Below the pieces are notes generated by a model that was not told the origin of the DNA, made no database searches, and saw only the letters and a program-made list of their open reading frames with translations. Positions 22,383-31,715 of a DNA stretch of 64,000 bases are shown piece after piece. The stretch is from Candidatus Heimdallarchaeota archaeon (lineage in GTDB: Archaea; Asgardarchaeota; Heimdallarchaeia; Heimdallarchaeales; Heimdallarchaeaceae): NCBI GenBank assembly GCA_018238545.1, contig JABCTC010000011.1:1-64000 (forward strand), read 5' to 3'. How positions within the stretch are numbered: position 1 is the stretch's first letter; each line of letters opens with the position of its first letter. Both the position numbers and the translations under genes were made by a program.

Positions 22383-23639
22383 TTAGCTTTGATTCAAGAT
22401 TAACCTAACATTAAGATCAAGTTCTTCACCTTTCTTTGTTAGACCTGTAATATATAATGTTTCATGGTTTCGTATTCCTTGTTCTTTCAATGTTGAATCC
22501 ATTTCTACATCTACTGGGTCTTTTTTATCAATTATCCAAAATGAAGGTAAAAATTCAGGATCATAACTATATCCTCTGTTTTTTATGATAGTTAGTAAAA
22601 CATCAACAGTTGCAGTTGCAGGTATTTTTACTTCTTCAATTATTGTAGCATTCCTACCACAGAGCATGCATTTCTTATTTGGTGGTTTTTCTATATAGAA
22701 GAATTTCCCTACTAATCCATTGTAAATAACATATTCAGGATTTACAGTACCAAGTTCAATTCCTTTGAGATGGTGCATAAGTTTCAATGCTTCTTGTGAT
22801 TGTAAAGAGGCTATTACAGCATTAATACTAATTATTGTTGGGTCGTGTTGGTCAACCATTTTCACAGCTTCATCCAAAGAAAATACCTTTTCAGAGGGGA
22901 AATGCTCTTTCACTAAGTTATTTGCATAGTTTATTACAAGATTCATTTCTTCCAAAATGGTCGTATCAGGGGGTCTATTGTTCTTTGACTCAAAATATAG
23001 TTGTCCTTTCAACAAACAGTGAGATTTTTTTCTTGGTATTCCCACTAGTGTACAAGCTGCTAAAGTTTCTCTTTCTCGTTCTTGCTGTGGATCACATTGA
23101 AGGCATGCATTTTCATCTGGCAAATAGGTGTAAACATGACCATAATATGTTGCAGTTCCTCCATCAATCATTGGTTTCTTAAACTGAACCGCTCTTCGTA
23201 TTAGCTCGTTTCTTGCTGTAACAGAATCTAAACCAGAAACATACATATCAGCTGTAGCATATACCTCTGGGTCAACATCTTCTAGATTGGAATGGTGCCA
23301 AATATATTTACTGTAAGGATTTATTTTCATTAGAGCTCTTGCTGCAACTTTAGCTTTAGGTTCTCCTTCATCTGCATCTGAGAAAAGTATTTGTCTATTA
23401 AGATTGGAATATTCAATAATATCTAAATCGATAAGGTGAATAGTTCCTACACCGGCCATAGCTAAGTTCTTTGCTATTTCTGTTCCCAATCCCCCAACTC
23501 CAACAATTAAAACCGTTGAATCTTTCAAAGCTTTCTGATTCCATCCAGGTAATCTAAGTTGTCTATCAAAACGTATTCTCTCATCTTTTGAAAGGGTTTC
23601 ATCGAAGAAATTAGATTTTTTTATGTTTTTTGCATTCAT
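22383..23639 (-). CDS. Ubiquitin-like activating enzyme E1 (ThiF/UBA family; UBA2/UBA3-like catalytic Cys motif; C-terminal ubiquitin-fold domain)
   Basis: RFDRQ, GVGGLG, DLDIIEYSNLNRQ, CxxC, ACTLVGIPRKKSHC. Confidence 0.9.
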   Translation of the reverse strand: MNAKNIKKSNFFDETLSKDERIRFDRQLRLPGWNQKALKDSTVLIVGVGGLGTEIAKNLAMAGVGTIHLIDLDIIEYSNLNRQILFSDADEGEPKAKVAARALMKINPYSKYIWHHSNLEDVDPEVYATADMYVSGLDSVTARNELIRRAVQFKKPMIDGGTATYYGHVYTYLPDENACLQCDPQQERERETLAACTLVGIPRKKSHCLLKGQLYFESKNNRPPDTTILEEMNLVINYANNLVKEHFPSEKVFSLDEAVKMVDQHDPTIISINAVIASLQSQEALKLMHHLKGIELGTVNPEYVIYNGLVGKFFYIEKPPNKKCMLCGRNATIIEEVKIPATATVDVLLTIIKNRGYSYDPEFLPSFWIIDKKDPVDVEMDSTLKEQGIRNHETLYITGLTKKGEELDLNVRLILNQS

Positions 23640-23770: not shown

Positions 23771-24130
23771 TTATCCTGCTGTTGAAACTGGGATCAGTAG
23801 AACTGTATCTCCATCTTCAACTCCATAATTTTCAAGAACATCGTCATTGTCACATGTTCTTCCAGCATGGGATAGATGGAATTCATCAGGTGGTAATCCA
23901 AAAATCTGGCTAACTGTATATTTTATATCACTAATTGGGGCATCAGTTGCTACAACAAGTTTTTCTTGTTTTGGACTTGGTCCAATGGTGCTTTGGAAAT
24001 ATACACTTATTTTCTTACCTGCTGGTGTTTTAGTCTTAGCAGGAGTTTTGGATTTTATCTCGGTTTCAATAACCTTTTCTTCTTCTTCTTCTTCTTCGTC
24101 AAAAGAAATTTCTTCAAATTCTTCGCTCAT
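23771..24130 (-). CDS. Ubiquitin-like modifier with acidic N-terminal extension, ending -STAG
   Basis: ISDIK..FGLPPDEFHLSHAGR..LENYGVEDGDTVLL aligns by eye with the ubiquitin core; adjacent to E1. Confidence 0.85.
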   Translation of the reverse strand: MSEEFEEISFDEEEEEEEKVIETEIKSKTPAKTKTPAGKKISVYFQSTIGPSPKQEKLVVATDAPISDIKYTVSQIFGLPPDEFHLSHAGRTCDNDDVLENYGVEDGDTVLLIPVSTAG

Positions 24131-24385: not shown

Positions 24386-25120
24386 ATGGGTAAAAGAAAC
24401 AAAAAAAAAGGTATTTCGAATAAAGTTCCTAAGCAAAAATTCCCGTTCGATTCGAAAATCCCAAAACATAAATTGCCTAAAGATAAAATACCCAAAAGTC
24501 AAATAAGGGATGAAGATTTTTTCCCTCCAGAAAAAAGAAAAACTCGAAAAATAGAATCAAAGCCTGTAAGATCACAGCTCAGAGACAGTCGAGAATCAGG
24601 GAAAAATAAAGGGATTCCAAAAGAGAAGATTGTTTCTAAAATCCCAAAAAGTCAAAAATTTAAGCAAAACCGTAAAAATAGCAAAAACATACCAAAACAG
24701 AAGATACCTAAAACAAAAATCCCCAAACAGGACTCTTTTTCAAGAACAGAATCACCTAATTACATTCCACAAGAAGAAAAAGCTAAACCAAAGAAAAAGG
24801 AGTCTCTTCCACCTAGAAGAGAGAGGTTCAAAGAAATTGATTCTATAGATTCTAAAGCACTAAAAAAAGAAGAGAAGAAAAAGAGAGAAGAAACACCTCC
24901 TTCTGATGATCGAGATAAATTTTCAGAAATTAAAGAATCAGATTCTCATTCACTACCAAAGGAAGAAAAAAGAGAAAAGAGAACAAGAGAAGCTCCTGCA
25001 ACTTCCAATATTGAGGAAACAAAAAAGGATAAGATACCAAAACAAAAAATACCAAAACACAAAGTTCCAAGCCAAAAATATCCTAAACAAACTAAGAAAC
25101 CAAAACAAAAAAGAAGCTAA
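24386..25120 (+). CDS. Lys-rich disordered protein with K[ILVFY]PKx repeats
   Basis: 244-aa open frame with repeated KIPK motifs; GGTG-type SD upstream. Confidence 0.65.
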   Translation: MGKRNKKKGISNKVPKQKFPFDSKIPKHKLPKDKIPKSQIRDEDFFPPEKRKTRKIESKPVRSQLRDSRESGKNKGIPKEKIVSKIPKSQKFKQNRKNSKNIPKQKIPKTKIPKQDSFSRTESPNYIPQEEKAKPKKKESLPPRRERFKEIDSIDSKALKKEEKKKREETPPSDDRDKFSEIKESDSHSLPKEEKREKRTREAPATSNIEETKKDKIPKQKIPKHKVPSQKYPKQTKKPKQKRS

Positions 25121-25138: not shown

Positions 25139-25717
25139 TCATACAAATATAGCCATAATAGCTGAGTAGAGATAAATTATCCCAGAAATTAGTAGAAAGA
25201 AATTTTCAAAATATGTTACTGATGTAACAATATAAATGGTGGGGATAATTAACATTAGTAAAAATCCAGCAAATTTAGGATTCGTCCCTTTTTCACTTGT
25301 ACTTCTAAATCTAATGAATGGATATCTAATAAAGGTTCTAAAAAGCAAAAATGTACTATATAGATAATATGGTAATAAAAGAAAATCAACAGCATTGATT
25401 TCCCTGAAACTTTCATCAGGAAACCCACTAATTGTAACTATACCAAAATCATTTACACCAAAGAGTATTTGAGCTAGCAATATTAAAACTGGAACAATGG
25501 GCAAAATAAAAACGTAAATAAATTCGTTGAATGTGGCTTTATGTTTTAAATAGAACAAACTTCGAATTACATAGAATAAGGATATGAAGACATATATGGA
25601 TAAGAAAATGAAAAATTTGCCTAAGTCAACATTTCCCTCAATGAAATAGTATATGGAGACACCTACTAAGGATAACGATGTTATAAATGATGCTGTTATA
25701 TGTGTCCAAGTACCCAT
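25139..25717 (-). CDS. Multi-pass membrane protein, paralogue of the TM domain of the adjacent RING protein
   Basis: About 6 TM; shared YxKHKA..LP and P-x-I-x-x-R blocks. Confidence 0.7.
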   Translation of the reverse strand: MGTWTHITASFITSLSLVGVSIYYFIEGNVDLGKFFIFLSIYVFISLFYVIRSLFYLKHKATFNEFIYVFILPIVPVLILLAQILFGVNDFGIVTISGFPDESFREINAVDFLLLPYYLYSTFLLFRTFIRYPFIRFRSTSEKGTNPKFAGFLLMLIIPTIYIVTSVTYFENFFLLISGIIYLYSAIMAIFV

Positions 25718-25777
25718 TTTTTGACCTCAATATTTTCTAGATTAGAAGTATTTAATCTCTAGCTTTCCGCACTCATT

Positions 25778-26884
25778 TCATAATTTGTTTACTACTCTTT
25801 CAATATAGATCTTTGTTGTGATTCTGTATTTAGGATTTCTTACATATGAATTTGAAATTGGTTTATTACATCTTGCACAATATTTTGAATTTTGGTACCA
25901 GCTTCTGAATTCATCTTCATGTGCTGGATATTTGCAATGAGGACAGAGGATTATTTTTCTTGTATCCTTCTTCTCAAAATCCATGAAACATATTATACAT
26001 TTTACTTCTTCTTTACTAGCCTTACCATTTGGGAAATAATCACGAACTGTAGTTTTAGTTTTAGTGGTTTTTGTGGATTTCTTAGTTTTCTTTCTGGTTG
26101 TTACTTCAATACCAGGAGCAATTTTAGCACTTCTTCTAGCTCTAGAAACTGACTTTGTGGTTCTAGTTCTTGTTGGAGAGGATAGTTGTCTGCTTCTGGA
26201 AGTTTGAGAAGAAGACCTTCGAACTGTAGTTGATGAGGTTCTTGCCCTAGTAGAGCTTCTGCTAGGAGAACTACTAGACATTATTACTGTACGTCTTTCT
26301 GATTTTATCAGTCTAACAAATATGAAATATCTAAAAATGAAAACTAAGTATATAATTGTGAAAATGAGACTAACTAGATCAATTTTCCCGTTTATAAAAA
26401 ATCCTAGTAGAATCGTGAAAACAAAAACACTATGAATTAATAAAGGAATAATTCTTTTTTTCCTCACTTTTCGTCTAATTGCTATTGCTGGCCATTTTCC
26501 CGAATAATAATTATTGAAATGCATAGTTAATATAATAACTGGGACAATTAAAGATAAAGAAATTAAATTGAAGAATATCTCTACTGCATTCCCACTAGAA
26601 GATATCAAAAACATCTCGTAAGTTGCTGCAAACGAAGTGATGTAATTGCCCATCAGAAGTATAACAAAAGGGAGAAGTAGGAATTGAGTACTAGCAAGAA
26701 TAGCTTTGTGTTTCTTATAGTGTCTCCTTTCTAGGAGGTACCTTAATGCTACAACGACATACAAAGTGATGAAAAAAATCGTCAGCATTATAGGTGTTTC
26801 ACTCTGGATTATAACATAGAGTATTCCAACAACTAACCCAACAATTCCGATTGCTAGATAAGTTTTGAAATTATTTAACTCCAA
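25778..26884 (-). CDS. Multi-pass membrane RING-finger protein (putative E3 ligase)
   Basis: About 6 TM, S/T/R-rich linker, CIIC..CPHC....H..E..W..CARC. Confidence 0.8.
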   Translation of the reverse strand: MELNNFKTYLAIGIVGLVVGILYVIIQSETPIMLTIFFITLYVVVALRYLLERRHYKKHKAILASTQFLLLPFVILLMGNYITSFAATYEMFLISSSGNAVEIFFNLISLSLIVPVIILTMHFNNYYSGKWPAIAIRRKVRKKRIIPLLIHSVFVFTILLGFFINGKIDLVSLIFTIIYLVFIFRYFIFVRLIKSERRTVIMSSSSPSRSSTRARTSSTTVRRSSSQTSRSRQLSSPTRTRTTKSVSRARRSAKIAPGIEVTTRKKTKKSTKTTKTKTTVRDYFPNGKASKEEVKCIICFMDFEKKDTRKIILCPHCKYPAHEDEFRSWYQNSKYCARCNKPISNSYVRNPKYRITTKIYIERVVNKL

Positions 26885-26910: not shown

Positions 26911-27639
26911 TTAAGATTTATCCTCTTTATTTTTCATGAAAGTGTTTATAGACTCATAACACGCTTCACTACTCATTCCTTGAACTTCAACAGATAGCTG
27001 ATAATACTTTTGTTTGTCTTGATGAATGCGAAATACACCAATCCCATAATCCTCTGGTGAGAGCATCAGGGGGTCGATAACAAGTGCTATAGATTTGTTC
27101 CAAAATGTTTGATATCTTAGATGTGTTCTGTAGTCATCACCACTCAAGAATGGAGTGTAACTTGGATGGGAATGAGCCCAACCGATTATGAAATGCTCGT
27201 TACCTTTCTTGTGGAAGATTTCTGTAAATATGTTTTGATCAACAATTTCTACGCTTACAGCATCTCCTTGATCAACAGGCCAGTAATCCTCAACAATGAT
27301 TTGCTCTAGCGGTGTTTCTTCATCGCTAATTTTTCCTGTAAGTAATCCAATTACTTCTACCCATTTCTTCTTAGGGATAGAATCATTAGCATAAGATAAA
27401 GCATGTTTTGCAAGTTTTAGATAAGCTTTGGGCTTCAATACAATCTCTGAAATAGGTTTGATTTGAAGTATATCTTCAGTTATGGTTTCTTCGCTAATTT
27501 CTTTAGCTTCCTTTTCCTTTTCCTCTACAATTTTATCAACTTTGTACAATTCTAGAGTTTTTTCAATTGCTTCAATTTTCTCAAGGAGTTTTTTATATTC
27601 AGCAGGATAATTGGTTCCATCATCTTCCATAATTTTCAC
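26911..27639 (-). CDS. JAB1/MPN+ (JAMM) metalloprotease, Rpn11/CSN5-like deubiquitinase
   Basis: EVIGLL..G and GWAHSHP..FLSGDD; ALVIDP. Confidence 0.9.
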   Translation of the reverse strand: MKIMEDDGTNYPAEYKKLLEKIEAIEKTLELYKVDKIVEEKEKEAKEISEETITEDILQIKPISEIVLKPKAYLKLAKHALSYANDSIPKKKWVEVIGLLTGKISDEETPLEQIIVEDYWPVDQGDAVSVEIVDQNIFTEIFHKKGNEHFIIGWAHSHPSYTPFLSGDDYRTHLRYQTFWNKSIALVIDPLMLSPEDYGIGVFRIHQDKQKYYQLSVEVQGMSSEACYESINTFMKNKEDKS

Positions 27640-27662: not shown

Positions 27663-28196
27663 TTACCAGTATGATTTTGCATACTTTTTACTTATTGTAC
27701 TCGCTTTTTTGATGAATTTCTTTTTGTTATTTAAAAATTCCAAAGCCGCTTCTTTGTTAAATACATCTTTGGGATTTACATAAGCTCCTTCGACATTAAA
27801 CATGGCAAGTATTGAGTGAATGACAGTAGTGATGCTTTTGGATGGAGACCAACCATCGTGTTTTCCTACTAAATCATTATCTACAAGAGCGAGACAAATA
27901 TTTCTTTTCTTTGGATATTCTTTTGGATTAGGCCAGAAATTAGGATGCCAAATAGGTGTGTGAAGTCTTACAAATGGAGGTTTGTAAGGATAATTTGGTC
28001 CAAAGAATATTTCTAATTTATATTTACCTCCAGCATAAGGAGTCCCCTTAGGAGCTTTGAATCCTATAGCTAGATGATCCATTGACTTCTTAGCTTTGGG
28101 GAATGATTTTACTTGCGCAACTATGCCTTCTTTATGTAATTTCCTCAAGGCTTCGTAATCTTTTATGACTCTTTGTTTTCTAATTTTTATCACCAT
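27663..28196 (-). CDS. Ubiquitin-conjugating enzyme E2
   Basis: GTPYAGG.Y, YPYKPP, WHPN, ICL (catalytic Cys), WSPS. Confidence 0.92.
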   Translation of the reverse strand: MVIKIRKQRVIKDYEALRKLHKEGIVAQVKSFPKAKKSMDHLAIGFKAPKGTPYAGGKYKLEIFFGPNYPYKPPFVRLHTPIWHPNFWPNPKEYPKKRNICLALVDNDLVGKHDGWSPSKSITTVIHSILAMFNVEGAYVNPKDVFNKEAALEFLNNKKKFIKKASTISKKYAKSYW

Positions 28197-28353: not shown

Positions 28354-29046
28354 ATGAGCGTATTTCATATTGTAGGAAATGAATTGATTCCAATCACGGA
28401 GCCTTATCAGTTTCTTAATGGTGATGTCTATATTATTGAAACAAAAAACAATCTGTGGATATGGTTAGGTTCTAAATCTTTTGCTGATGAAAAATTTATT
28501 GGTTCTTGGGGAGCAAAGAAAATCGAAAGTCAAAATAAGGAGCTGAAAATTGAAACCATCAATCAAGGTTTCGAGCCTGCAGAGTTTAAGGAACAGATTG
28601 CCTTTGAAATTGTTGAAGGAGATACCTTAGGTTTTCTCAAATCAATTGACACAAAATATGAGAAAGATTTCAGATTGCTTCAGATTAAGGAGGATGATGA
28701 AGGAGCAGTGATAGTTTCAGAACTACCTATTGAACACAAACACTTTCAATCCGATGATGCTTTTGTTCTAGATGCTTACAGCGTTCTTTATGTCTGGATT
28801 GGTAAAGATAGTCAGGTTAAAGAGAAATATGAAGCTGGAAGAATCACTAGACTGTTAGAAGTAGAGAGAAAAAGATTTCCAATTATTTATGTAATCGAAG
28901 AAGAGAACGAACCTGATGGTTTTCGTGAGCTTCTCTACAAATTGGGATTAAGGGATGGAATTATGGAATTAAGAAGGACAGTGAAAAGAGTAGACGAGAA
29001 AAAAGGTTCTACATCCAAAAAATGGTGGCAGTTCTGGAAAAGATGA
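28354..29046 (+). CDS. Two-domain gelsolin/villin-like actin regulator
   Basis: Two repeats: FLNGDVYII..WIWLG..S and FQSDDAFVLD..YVWIG..S..EK; C-terminal KKWWQFWKR. Confidence 0.85.
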   Translation: MSVFHIVGNELIPITEPYQFLNGDVYIIETKNNLWIWLGSKSFADEKFIGSWGAKKIESQNKELKIETINQGFEPAEFKEQIAFEIVEGDTLGFLKSIDTKYEKDFRLLQIKEDDEGAVIVSELPIEHKHFQSDDAFVLDAYSVLYVWIGKDSQVKEKYEAGRITRLLEVERKRFPIIYVIEEENEPDGFRELLYKLGLRDGIMELRRTVKRVDEKKGSTSKKWWQFWKR

Positions 29047-30680: not shown

Positions 30681-31715
30681 ATGAATAGATATTATCTAAA
30701 ACGCCTTCTCTCAGCAGTTTTTATAATTGCTATCATCGTAGGGGGAGTTTTTATTTCGTATGATATTGTTGGAAATACTTTTAGGTTTTATTATTTCCTT
30801 TTCTATGTTGTAGGATGCATTATAATTATCCCCACTCTTTTGAGAATTTATTGGTACATTAAGTTAAAGAGAGAAACTCGTAAACCTTCTAAATTAACTG
30901 AAGTCTATATCGATCATGCTAAGGAACTAGTTACAGATAAGGAAAAGATACTTACAAAAATCGTATCCACTATTAGAGAACTTGGTGGAGAGATTATAGA
31001 AAAATATCTTGATCAAGTTCCTAGAGTAATTTTTTATTTCCCAAATGAACATAAATACAATTTTTTTCATAGAACAACAGTAAAGGTTCTTTCAGTTAAT
31101 GAACTAGTTATAGATACGATGATGAAAGCAGATTATCCTTTGGCTTTCAGTATTAAGCGGAAAAGAGGAATGAAGAGTGATACTGGTGATGATGTTGATT
31201 TACCTAGTTCCAGTGAATTCTACATCTTTCATTCAAATCATCACTCATTCTATGAGACTCTACTTGAAAAAGAAGAAATTAACAAAATGCTAATCGACAT
31301 GAAAGAAGATTTGAAGCAATTTACACTGAATCGTAAATTTGCAGAAGCACGTATCAGAAACAGTGAAAAGGTATCAACATACCTTGAACTTCTTGCTAAG
31401 TTGTATGAAGAGCTTCTACTAAAGGACTTCGATGATTTGGAAGTTGAAGAGATTCTTTGTTATCAGTGTGATAGTGTTTTTGAAGCTAATGAGGAGACTT
31501 GTAATCAATGTGATGCTCATAGACCAACATGTAAAGTCTGTTTACTTGACTTAAAACCTTCGGAAAAGAATATTGTTGTTAAAACACCTTGTTGTGAAAC
31601 ATACGCACATAAAAAACATCTCATAACATGGTTGGAGCTGAACAGTAAGTGTCCTAATTGTAAAACTGACTTATTCTTATGGTTAAGAGGTTTAAAGCAA
31701 AATAATCAAGGATAG
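30681..31715 (+). CDS. Two-TM membrane protein with C-terminal zinc ribbon + RING finger (putative E3)
   Basis: CYQC..CNQC, then CKVC..PCC...AHKKHL..W..CPNC. Confidence 0.8.
   Translation: MNRYYLKRLLSAVFIIAIIVGGVFISYDIVGNTFRFYYFLFYVVGCIIIIPTLLRIYWYIKLKRETRKPSKLTEVYIDHAKELVTDKEKILTKIVSTIRELGGEIIEKYLDQVPRVIFYFPNEHKYNFFHRTTVKVLSVNELVIDTMMKADYPLAFSIKRKRGMKSDTGDDVDLPSSSEFYIFHSNHHSFYETLLEKEEINKMLIDMKEDLKQFTLNRKFAEARIRNSEKVSTYLELLAKLYEELLLKDFDDLEVEEILCYQCDSVFEANEETCNQCDAHRPTCKVCLLDLKPSEKNIVVKTPCCETYAHKKHLITWLELNSKCPNCKTDLFLWLRGLKQNNQG

Follow-up and report, generated by a model that had tools for sequence, protein, structure and literature searches.

Archaeal operons for ubiquitin-like conjugation are regarded as forerunners of the eukaryotic system, and work on their ubiquitin ligase (E3) has to date dealt with a small soluble RING protein. 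The operon of Ca. Caldiarchaeum subterraneum encodes ubiquitin, an E1-like (activating) enzyme, an E2-like (conjugating) enzyme, an Rpn11/JAB protein and a small RING finger protein, srfp, for which a membrane domain is not mentioned (PMC5654768, PMC6043591). In Helarchaeia, a cascade of E1, E2 and RING E3 acts on UEV-Vps23 and is active in vitro; this E3 was purified and assayed as the full-length protein and has a substrate-binding N-terminal loop, and neither a membrane domain nor a paralogous partner was described for it (bioRxiv 10.1101/2023.07.25.550441). Here we analyzed the first 64,000 nucleotides (hereafter the window) of contig JABCTC010000011.1 from a Candidatus Heimdallarchaeota archaeon (GCA_018238545.1; 3.6 Mb in 128 contigs, 92% complete), in which the RING protein of such an operon, P0002, is a predicted integral membrane protein and is followed by a RING-less membrane protein, P0001. 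Sequence comparison indicated that the two membrane domains are distant paralogues, and the pair is a candidate two-subunit membrane ligase in archaea closely related to eukaryotes.

As in the Caldiarchaeum operon, the locus combines the gene for a ubiquitin-like modifier with those for an E1 of the ThiF type, an E2 (UQ_con), an isopeptidase (JAB) and a single RING protein as the putative E3, and as in Helarchaeia an Asgard RING E3 is encoded with E1, E2 and ubiquitin. Unlike in Caldiarchaeum, the RING is joined to a six-helix domain by a linker of ~90 residues, has Glu as its sixth ligand and is accompanied by a RING-less paralogue, and the modifier ends in Ala-Gly. No description of a membrane domain or paralogous partner of an archaeal operon E3, and no membrane-anchored archaeal RING, was found in the literature searched (subscription journals lay outside its scope). 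An integral membrane E3 would place the tagging reaction at the membrane, and the Heimdall-specific RING-less paralogue would make it the first membrane ligase outside eukaryotes to be a candidate for a multi-subunit organization.

In eukaryotes, ubiquitin drives ESCRT-based sorting and endoplasmic reticulum-associated degradation at membranes, and polytopic membrane RING-H2 ligases such as Hrd1/synoviolin, gp78/AMFR, RNF139/TRC8 and RNF121 work with additional membrane subunits. P0002 shares with these ligases its domain order, in which several membrane helices at the N-terminus precede a RING-H2-like finger in the cytosol; unlike P0002, the eukaryotic RINGs have Cys at ligand 6, and no similarity between the membrane domains was found. 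Yeast Asi1/Asi3 is a heteromer of paralogous polytopic proteins with a RING in both subunits, unlike the pair described here, in which P0001 has none. In the RING-CH class of MARCH and Doa10 a C4HC3 finger lies N-terminal to the membrane helices; the RING of P0002 is C-terminal, Pfam RINGv was not among its matches and its best profiles were those of RING-H2 fingers. An earlier, sequence-only reading of the locus had described paired paralogous six-transmembrane proteins, of which only one carried a linker and a RING, and had interpreted them as a possible heteromeric membrane ligase. The observation was confirmed and the interpretation as a whole was partly supported, the sequence evidence favoring a duplicated pair, a conserved operon unit beside the E2, JAB, E1 and ubiquitin-like genes, the same topology in both proteins and mirrored trees.

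Relationship and topology of the two membrane domains

Both open reading frames were confirmed on the minus strand, P0001 (192 residues) at 25139-25717 and P0002 (368 residues) at 25778-26884, and the homologues of both bear Heimdallarchaeota or Heimdallarchaeaceae names. P0002 comprises a six-helix membrane domain (residues 1-197; 26294-26884), with a TTG start which agrees with the MELNN start of its homologues, a disordered S/T/R-rich cytoplasmic linker (residues ~198-282; 26039-26293) and a C-terminal RING-H2-like finger recognized by its cysteine/histidine pattern and a profile match (residues 283-368 plus stop; 25778-26038). P0001 has neither linker nor RING. Each protein has six hydrophobic helices in the same arrangement and spacing, and the positions of shared motifs are near identical, with KHKA at residues 58-61 in both, the proline of LLP/IVP at 116/115, and RYPFIRFR at 131-138 aligned with KWPAIAIR at 130-137.

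Narrow comparisons gave weak signals. BLASTP matched P0001 and P0002 over residues 17-61 alone (E 4e-4), hhalign with narrow family profiles returned E 0.012 and a probability of 3.6%, and a hidden Markov model (HMM) of the partner family (P0001 and its homologues) did not recover P0002 in its own genome. Significance was judged against a null model in which alignment columns were shuffled within blocks of 10 or 20 so that the helix layout was preserved; the narrow-profile score was equalled in 1-2 of 100 such shuffles. These tests would have understated the relationship. When broad profiles of 35 and 34 sequences, drawn from three family-level Heimdall lineages, were aligned with hhalign, the match was significant at a probability of 94% and E 1.5e-7 over 126 collinear columns (P0001 20-146 against P0002 20-147), and the motif pairings which the sequence-only reading had made by eye were reproduced. 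The score of 53.3 compared with a null mean of ~15 (standard deviation 3, maximum 29.8), was reached in none of 120 block shuffles and corresponded to z>10.

Searches with single-family profiles agreed with this result. The membrane profile of the transmembrane RING (TM-RING) family, to which P0002 belongs, matched partner proteins of the divergent lineage with scores as high as 27.8 bits, and a score of 22.1 bits was obtained for the TM-RING protein of the LC_2 lineage with the partner profile; both stand above the best unrelated open reading frames of the whole-genome background (15.6 and 12.8 bits). An Asgard-wide HMM built only from TM-RING membrane domains recovered 96 proteins from 1.84 billion protein representatives. 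Four of these were partner-family proteins of 192-199 residues, whose matches spanned almost the entire domain (E 1.5e-9 to 2e-4) and which fitted the partner's own profile at E 1e-43 to 9e-63. All of the 94 matches that were tested fitted the Heimdall TM-RING, Loki TM-RING or partner profile, and at HMMER sensitivity no match outside the TM-RING/partner family was obtained from this library. The membrane domain thus appears to be confined to that family at this sensitivity. Taken together, the broad-profile alignment, the shuffle null and the library-wide cross-matches establish, at the level of sequence, that P0001 and the membrane domain of P0002 are true but distant paralogues, a duplicated pair as the sequence-only reading had proposed.

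Charge distribution was the same in the two families: Lys and Arg cluster at the N-terminus, in loops 2-3 and 4-5 and after the sixth helix, and Asp and Glu cluster in loops 1-2, 3-4 and 5-6. Both families are predicted from this distribution to have their N- and C-termini inside the cell, with the RING in the cytoplasm. The two cytoplasmic loops were the most conserved parts (mean column identity 0.64-0.81, versus 0.34-0.41 for the outer loops) and in P0001 contain the conserved motifs YLKHKATFNE and RYPFIR..SEKG. In these homologous loops each family has a distinct set of invariant residues, which fits divergent, non-redundant roles for partner and TM-RING.

The AlphaFold2 model of P0001 had a predicted local distance difference test score (pLDDT) of 72.7, with helices at 2-27, 30-59, 65-86, 109-131, 147-170 and 173-191 and a small beta-hairpin at 92-108 in the loop between the third and fourth helices. 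The P0002 model (pLDDT 53.6 overall; membrane domain 50-67, linker ~30, RING 70-79) showed the same secondary-structure plan, including that hairpin. Fold searches with the P0001 model returned only helical hairpins in a VIA-wide search (best Z 8.0), SWEET/SemiSWEET proteins with poor TM-scores in a Foldseek search of the PDB (best E 0.7) and a best TM of 0.41 in the ESM Atlas. A Protein Atlas feature search for P0001 returned unnamed clusters only (best score 0.84), Foldseek with the full-length P0002 model gave only weak U-box and RING matches (E 0.4 or worse), and neither membrane domain had a match in Pfam. Hrd1, Derlin and rhomboid proteins were absent from the top matches of the three fold searches made with the P0001 model, a result with which a remote kinship would still be compatible.

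The RING finger and its tagging system

The linker of P0002 varies in sequence among homologues while its composition and ~90-residue length are maintained. It leads into a RING of the pattern C296-x2-C299-x14-C314-x2-C317-x4-H322-x2-E325-x3-W329-x6-C336-x2-C339, all nine named residues being invariant in 25 close and 22 broad homologues; H316, by comparison, is variable and is replaced by Asn in several. The family RING profile aligned with the RING-H2 finger of human RNF24 (PDB 2ep4), its best match, at E 2.1e-7 over 59 positions, followed by RNF4, RNF165/Arkadia, RNF38 and EL5 at E 1e-3 to 1e-2. In common with RNF24 are the first Cys pair, His322, the conserved Trp (W329) and the last Cys pair, and the sixth ligand position is taken by E325. 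Ligands 3/4 form C-x-H in RNF24 and C-x2-C in the P0002 family, and ligand 6 is Cys in the former and Glu in the latter. The profile matches indicate that the P0002 RING is kin to RING-H2 fingers. It departs from the C3H2C3 eight-ligand pattern, in that seven ligands are invariant, ligand 4 is the Cys of a C-x2-C pair and ligand 6 is Glu.

The sequence-only reading had singled out this Glu (in HEDE, residues 322-325), and it was present in 25 of 25 and 22 of 22 aligned homologues and in 71 of the 72 library representatives with the motif, the remaining one having Ala. By this measure the near-universal Glu at ligand 6 defines a distinct, conserved RING variant. Contacts between RING fingers and E2 enzymes involve an aliphatic residue after the first Cys, a Trp three residues after ligand 6 and a Pro after ligand 7. 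In this family the residue after C296 is Ile, Met or Thr, W329 is invariant and C336 is followed by Ala, Ser or Pro. The Ala variant also occurs in the Asgard TM-RING homologue of locus L043 (4857-6128, minus strand), which has an insertion of ~45 residues after the first helix. A soluble protein of 343 residues (L054 10432-11463, minus strand), encoded ~1 kb past the ubiquitin gene of a Loki-type operon, has the same RING spacing and a canonical Cys at ligand 6.

The genes of an archaeal operon-encoded ubiquitin-like conjugation system are clustered around the pair, all on the minus strand. The E2 gene (27663-28196; UQ_con, E 3e-26) is the first of a four-gene unit and is followed by the JAB/MPN isopeptidase gene (26911-27639; JAB, E 4e-13), P0002 and P0001, with gaps of 23, 26 and 60 nt. 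The last of these gaps, after the P0002 stop, contains a Shine-Dalgarno-like GAGGT (25724-25728) 6 nt upstream of the P0001 ATG. The ubiquitin-like modifier, which ends ...IPVSTAG, is encoded at 23771-24130 (Pfam ubiquitin, E 4e-7) and the E1-like activating enzyme at 22383-23639 (ThiF, E 7e-55). No Cdc48 or proteasome gene was found in the operon.

The ...IP(V/A/H)STAG ending was found in the operon modifier of all Asgard lineages sampled (34 modifier-like open reading frames in loci L001-L054). Some copies have 1-4 extra residues after STAG and, as read from their sequence, would need trimming. On another contig of the same genome (C21 30298-30495; L058 1480-1716) a separate ubiquitin of 78 residues ends in Gly-Gly-Tyr and adjoins a second ThiF-type E1-like gene, for a protein of 338 residues (L058 1854-2870). 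The presence of this second ubiquitin and E1-like gene indicates that the organism has two ubiquitin-like systems, and the STAG ending of the operon modifier, set beside the separate Gly-Gly ubiquitin, marks the TM-RING as a candidate ligase for a separate tagging system whose modifier ends in Ala-Gly. In one Asgard family a protein of ~584 residues with similarity to the modifier adjoins the TM-RING gene (L046 6192-7949, minus strand; L051 2213-3964, plus strand); with a ...PASTAG motif near its end in L051, it may be a large modifier-fusion protein.

Distribution and history of the pair

The same operon gene order was found in 25 loci across many Asgard families, and all Heimdall loci examined had the order Ub-(Ub)-E1-E2-JAB-TMRING-partner. 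In one family-level group (f5) the TM-RING and partner genes abut or overlap; in L017 the overlap is 10 nt. LC_2-like lineages (L001, L023 and L024) have the partner on the opposite strand, with one or two genes in between. Among 399 Asgard genomes surveyed, the partner profile matched 53, all belonging to four family-level groups of one class (f1, 22 of 29; f4, 9 of 12; f5, 19 of 22; f6, 2 of 2). The Heimdall-type TM-RING profile matched 43 of the 399 in the same groups, with three marginal matches elsewhere, and missed at least one true case (genome G078, seen in locus L050 of f6). Both genes were present in 42 genomes, and in 36 of these they lay on one contig within ~2.7 kb. Genomes lacking both genes also lacked the operon E2; as they lack the whole operon, co-loss was dropped as evidence specific to the pair.

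Loki-type loci have the same TM-RING architecture. Their membrane domain aligned with the Heimdall one (hhalign 95.8%, E 7e-9, 186 columns) and was found in 134 of the 399 genomes; the largest family, with 135 genomes, accounts for 114 of these. Together with the 43 genomes matched by the Heimdall-type profile, this puts detection of the TM-RING at well above one third of the Asgard genomes surveyed. The partner resembles the Heimdall type far more strongly (E 1.5e-7) than the Loki type (E 0.0045). In the loci of eight further families the operon ends at the TM-RING, with no partner behind it. Since most Asgard lineages carry the TM-RING alone, the partner is no general second subunit of it; it is an accessory that was acquired in Heimdallarchaeia. 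An open reading frame of 143 residues with four predicted helices, which follows the TM-RING in a single Loki-type genome (L028 4154-4585, minus strand, the same as L029 418-849), was considered as a conserved Loki partner and rejected, having no counterpart in 13 other Loki-type loci or in 11 loci of other families.

In the phylogenetic tree the partner formed one clade (support 100/100) on a long branch (2.8) joining the Heimdall part of the TM-RING sequences, and the branching order within it was that of the Heimdall TM-RING clade. The tree's placement of the duplication was not used, as the attachment point conflicts with the partner's own distribution; only the monophyly of the partner and the mirrored branching order were retained. 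The simplest history consistent with these sequences would be that the membrane domain was duplicated once, in an ancestor within Heimdallarchaeia, and that the two copies were inherited together from then on.

Candidate roles of the pair and neighboring genes

We put the probability that P0001 and P0002 form a heteromeric membrane ligase at roughly one half. P0002 would be the membrane-embedded E3 of the operon-encoded tagging system made up of the STAG-ending modifier, E1, E2 and JAB isopeptidase, with its six-helix domain in the cytoplasmic membrane, both ends inside the cell, and a flexible linker of ~90 residues holding the RING-H2-type finger in the cytoplasm to recruit the charged E2. 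P0001 would have been born by duplication of the membrane domain in the ancestor of several Heimdallarchaeial families, would either have shed the linker and RING or have lacked them from the outset, and would have remained the next gene to the TM-RING ever since. On the favored reading these paralogues of the same topology pair laterally in the membrane to form a pseudo-symmetric heteromer, in which the catalytic subunit is accompanied by a RING-less one whose own conserved cytoplasmic loops modulate the choice of substrates, stability or regulation. The proteins tagged would be those in or close to the membrane, and the JAB enzyme would serve to undo or process the tagging. From the sequences we infer the E3 activity, zinc binding by Glu325, the association of P0001 with P0002 and the nature of the substrates. 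When a subunit of an oligomeric membrane protein is duplicated, the copies commonly continue to interact as heteromers, and the co-inheritance of this pair suggests a two-subunit membrane ligase.

Several results weigh against that proposal. Most Asgard lineages end the operon with the TM-RING and carry no partner, so that the ligase would need none in principle, and a small transmembrane open reading frame lay downstream in only 1 of 14 Loki-type loci. No fused, 12-helix form occurred among the 96 library matches, and none was found in a search for longer proteins, although this was rated as weak evidence. No interface signal was obtained, physical or computational; the complex prediction score of 0.00, obtained without controls, counts neither for nor against association. 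The model of the P0002 membrane domain is of low confidence (pLDDT 50-67). As to the RING, Pfam scores for the single sequence fell below the gathering cut-offs (15-16 bits versus 27-29; zf-RING_2, 15.7 versus 27.3) and the sixth ligand is not canonical, so its predicted catalytic competence is not assured; the one Asgard homologue with Ala at that position suggests that the ligand-6 side chain may be non-obligatory for metal binding.

Other readings were weighed against the same evidence. That the similarity of the membrane domains is a compositional artefact of hydrophobic helices in unrelated genes might have been argued from the weak pairwise and narrow-profile signals and from the failure of the partner HMM to find P0002, but it is effectively refuted by the margin of the broad alignment over layout-preserving shuffles, by reciprocal cross-matches above every unrelated open reading frame of the genome and by a library search whose full-length matches were to partners and nothing else. 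A possible, if unlikely, role for the partner is that of a RING-less decoy or regulator outside any fixed heteromer, which would retain an ancestral surface for substrates, lipids or a docking factor and compete with or gate the ligase, for example by shielding substrates or titrating an adaptor. Dominant-negative paralogues without a catalytic module are a common regulatory device, and a partner having the fold and topology of the ligase domain yet different invariant loop residues would suit one, as would the occurrence of the ligase alone in most Asgard lineages. However, the gene lies directly downstream and sometimes overlaps, and so tight a coupling within the operon suggests that both proteins are made in near-stoichiometric amounts, as is more usual for subunits than for regulators; nor is there any sign that partner and ligase share ligands. 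We likewise consider it unlikely, though plausible, that the partner acts on its own in the membrane, for instance as a small transporter, channel or scaffold, or is a client of the ligase, and owes its place in the operon to co-regulation or inertia. No interface signal between the two was obtained, the partner has diverged strongly from the ligase domain (the branch length of 2.8), and its opposite-strand position in three loci means that co-transcription is not universal. Such independence is harder to reconcile with a linkage kept across four family-level lineages with the branching order of the ligase, with a module gained and lost as a whole, with conservation on cytoplasmic loops rather than on pore-like intramembrane polar residues, and with the lack of a transporter family match in Pfam, fold and feature searches.

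The sequence-only reading had drawn an architectural analogy to Hrd1-type ligases while claiming no homology to Hrd1 or Derlin. The P0001 model had no significant match to Hrd1, Derlin, Doa10/MARCH6 or any other fold, whether solved or in the Atlas. The analogy itself held for the order of domains; no extension to fold or sequence was detected, so that the comparison with Hrd1 and Derlin is best treated as one of architecture alone. A literal archaeal counterpart of the Hrd1/Der1 retrotranslocation channel, in which two membrane half-channels would make the bilayer thinner and pass misfolded membrane or secreted proteins through to the cytoplasmic side for tagging and extraction, is very improbable. 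The resemblance lies in a polytopic domain with a cytosolic RING-H2 and a RING-less polytopic partner, and the Hrd1/synoviolin RING was among the weak matches of the RING itself (sequence E 0.07-0.3; fold E 0.54). Against this, neither sequence nor fold searches detected similarity of the membrane domain to the eight-helix Hrd1, to Derlin or to rhomboid proteins, P0001 and P0002 are paralogues of each other whereas Hrd1 and Der1 are not, and the operon is without a Cdc48 or proteasome gene.

Within the heteromeric ligase proposal, a more specific and rather doubtful version is that the pair is a pseudo-symmetric intramembrane module which selects membrane proteins for tagging with the STAG modifier, leading to ESCRT-type sorting or to extraction and degradation. 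If this version were true, ubiquitylation of membrane proteins by a multi-subunit polytopic E3 would be a pre-eukaryotic invention, present as a single-gene form across Asgard archaea and elaborated into a two-subunit form in Heimdallarchaeia.

Convergent with the partner gene, a plus-strand gene at 24386-25120 encodes an apparently disordered, Lys-rich protein (25% Lys) with IPKQKIPK-type repeats. Proteins of this kind (~25% Lys, the same type of repeat, no Pfam match) lie beside the partner in several Heimdall lineages, with counterparts at L003 8617-9348, L001 8584-9234, L024 3699-4643, L025 2785-3573 and L026 5310-6170; judged from composition and position, this neighbor could be a candidate substrate, acceptor or adaptor. 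On the other side of the cluster, a two-repeat gelsolin gene (28354-29046, plus strand) lies 157 bp from the E2 gene and is transcribed divergently from it. Another membrane protein with a RING, P0110 (344 residues; 30681-31715, plus strand), is encoded ~2.5 kb from the E2 end of the cluster; it has two helices at its N-terminus, a soluble domain in the middle and, at its C-terminus, a canonical RING-H2 (zf-RING_2, E 2e-5).

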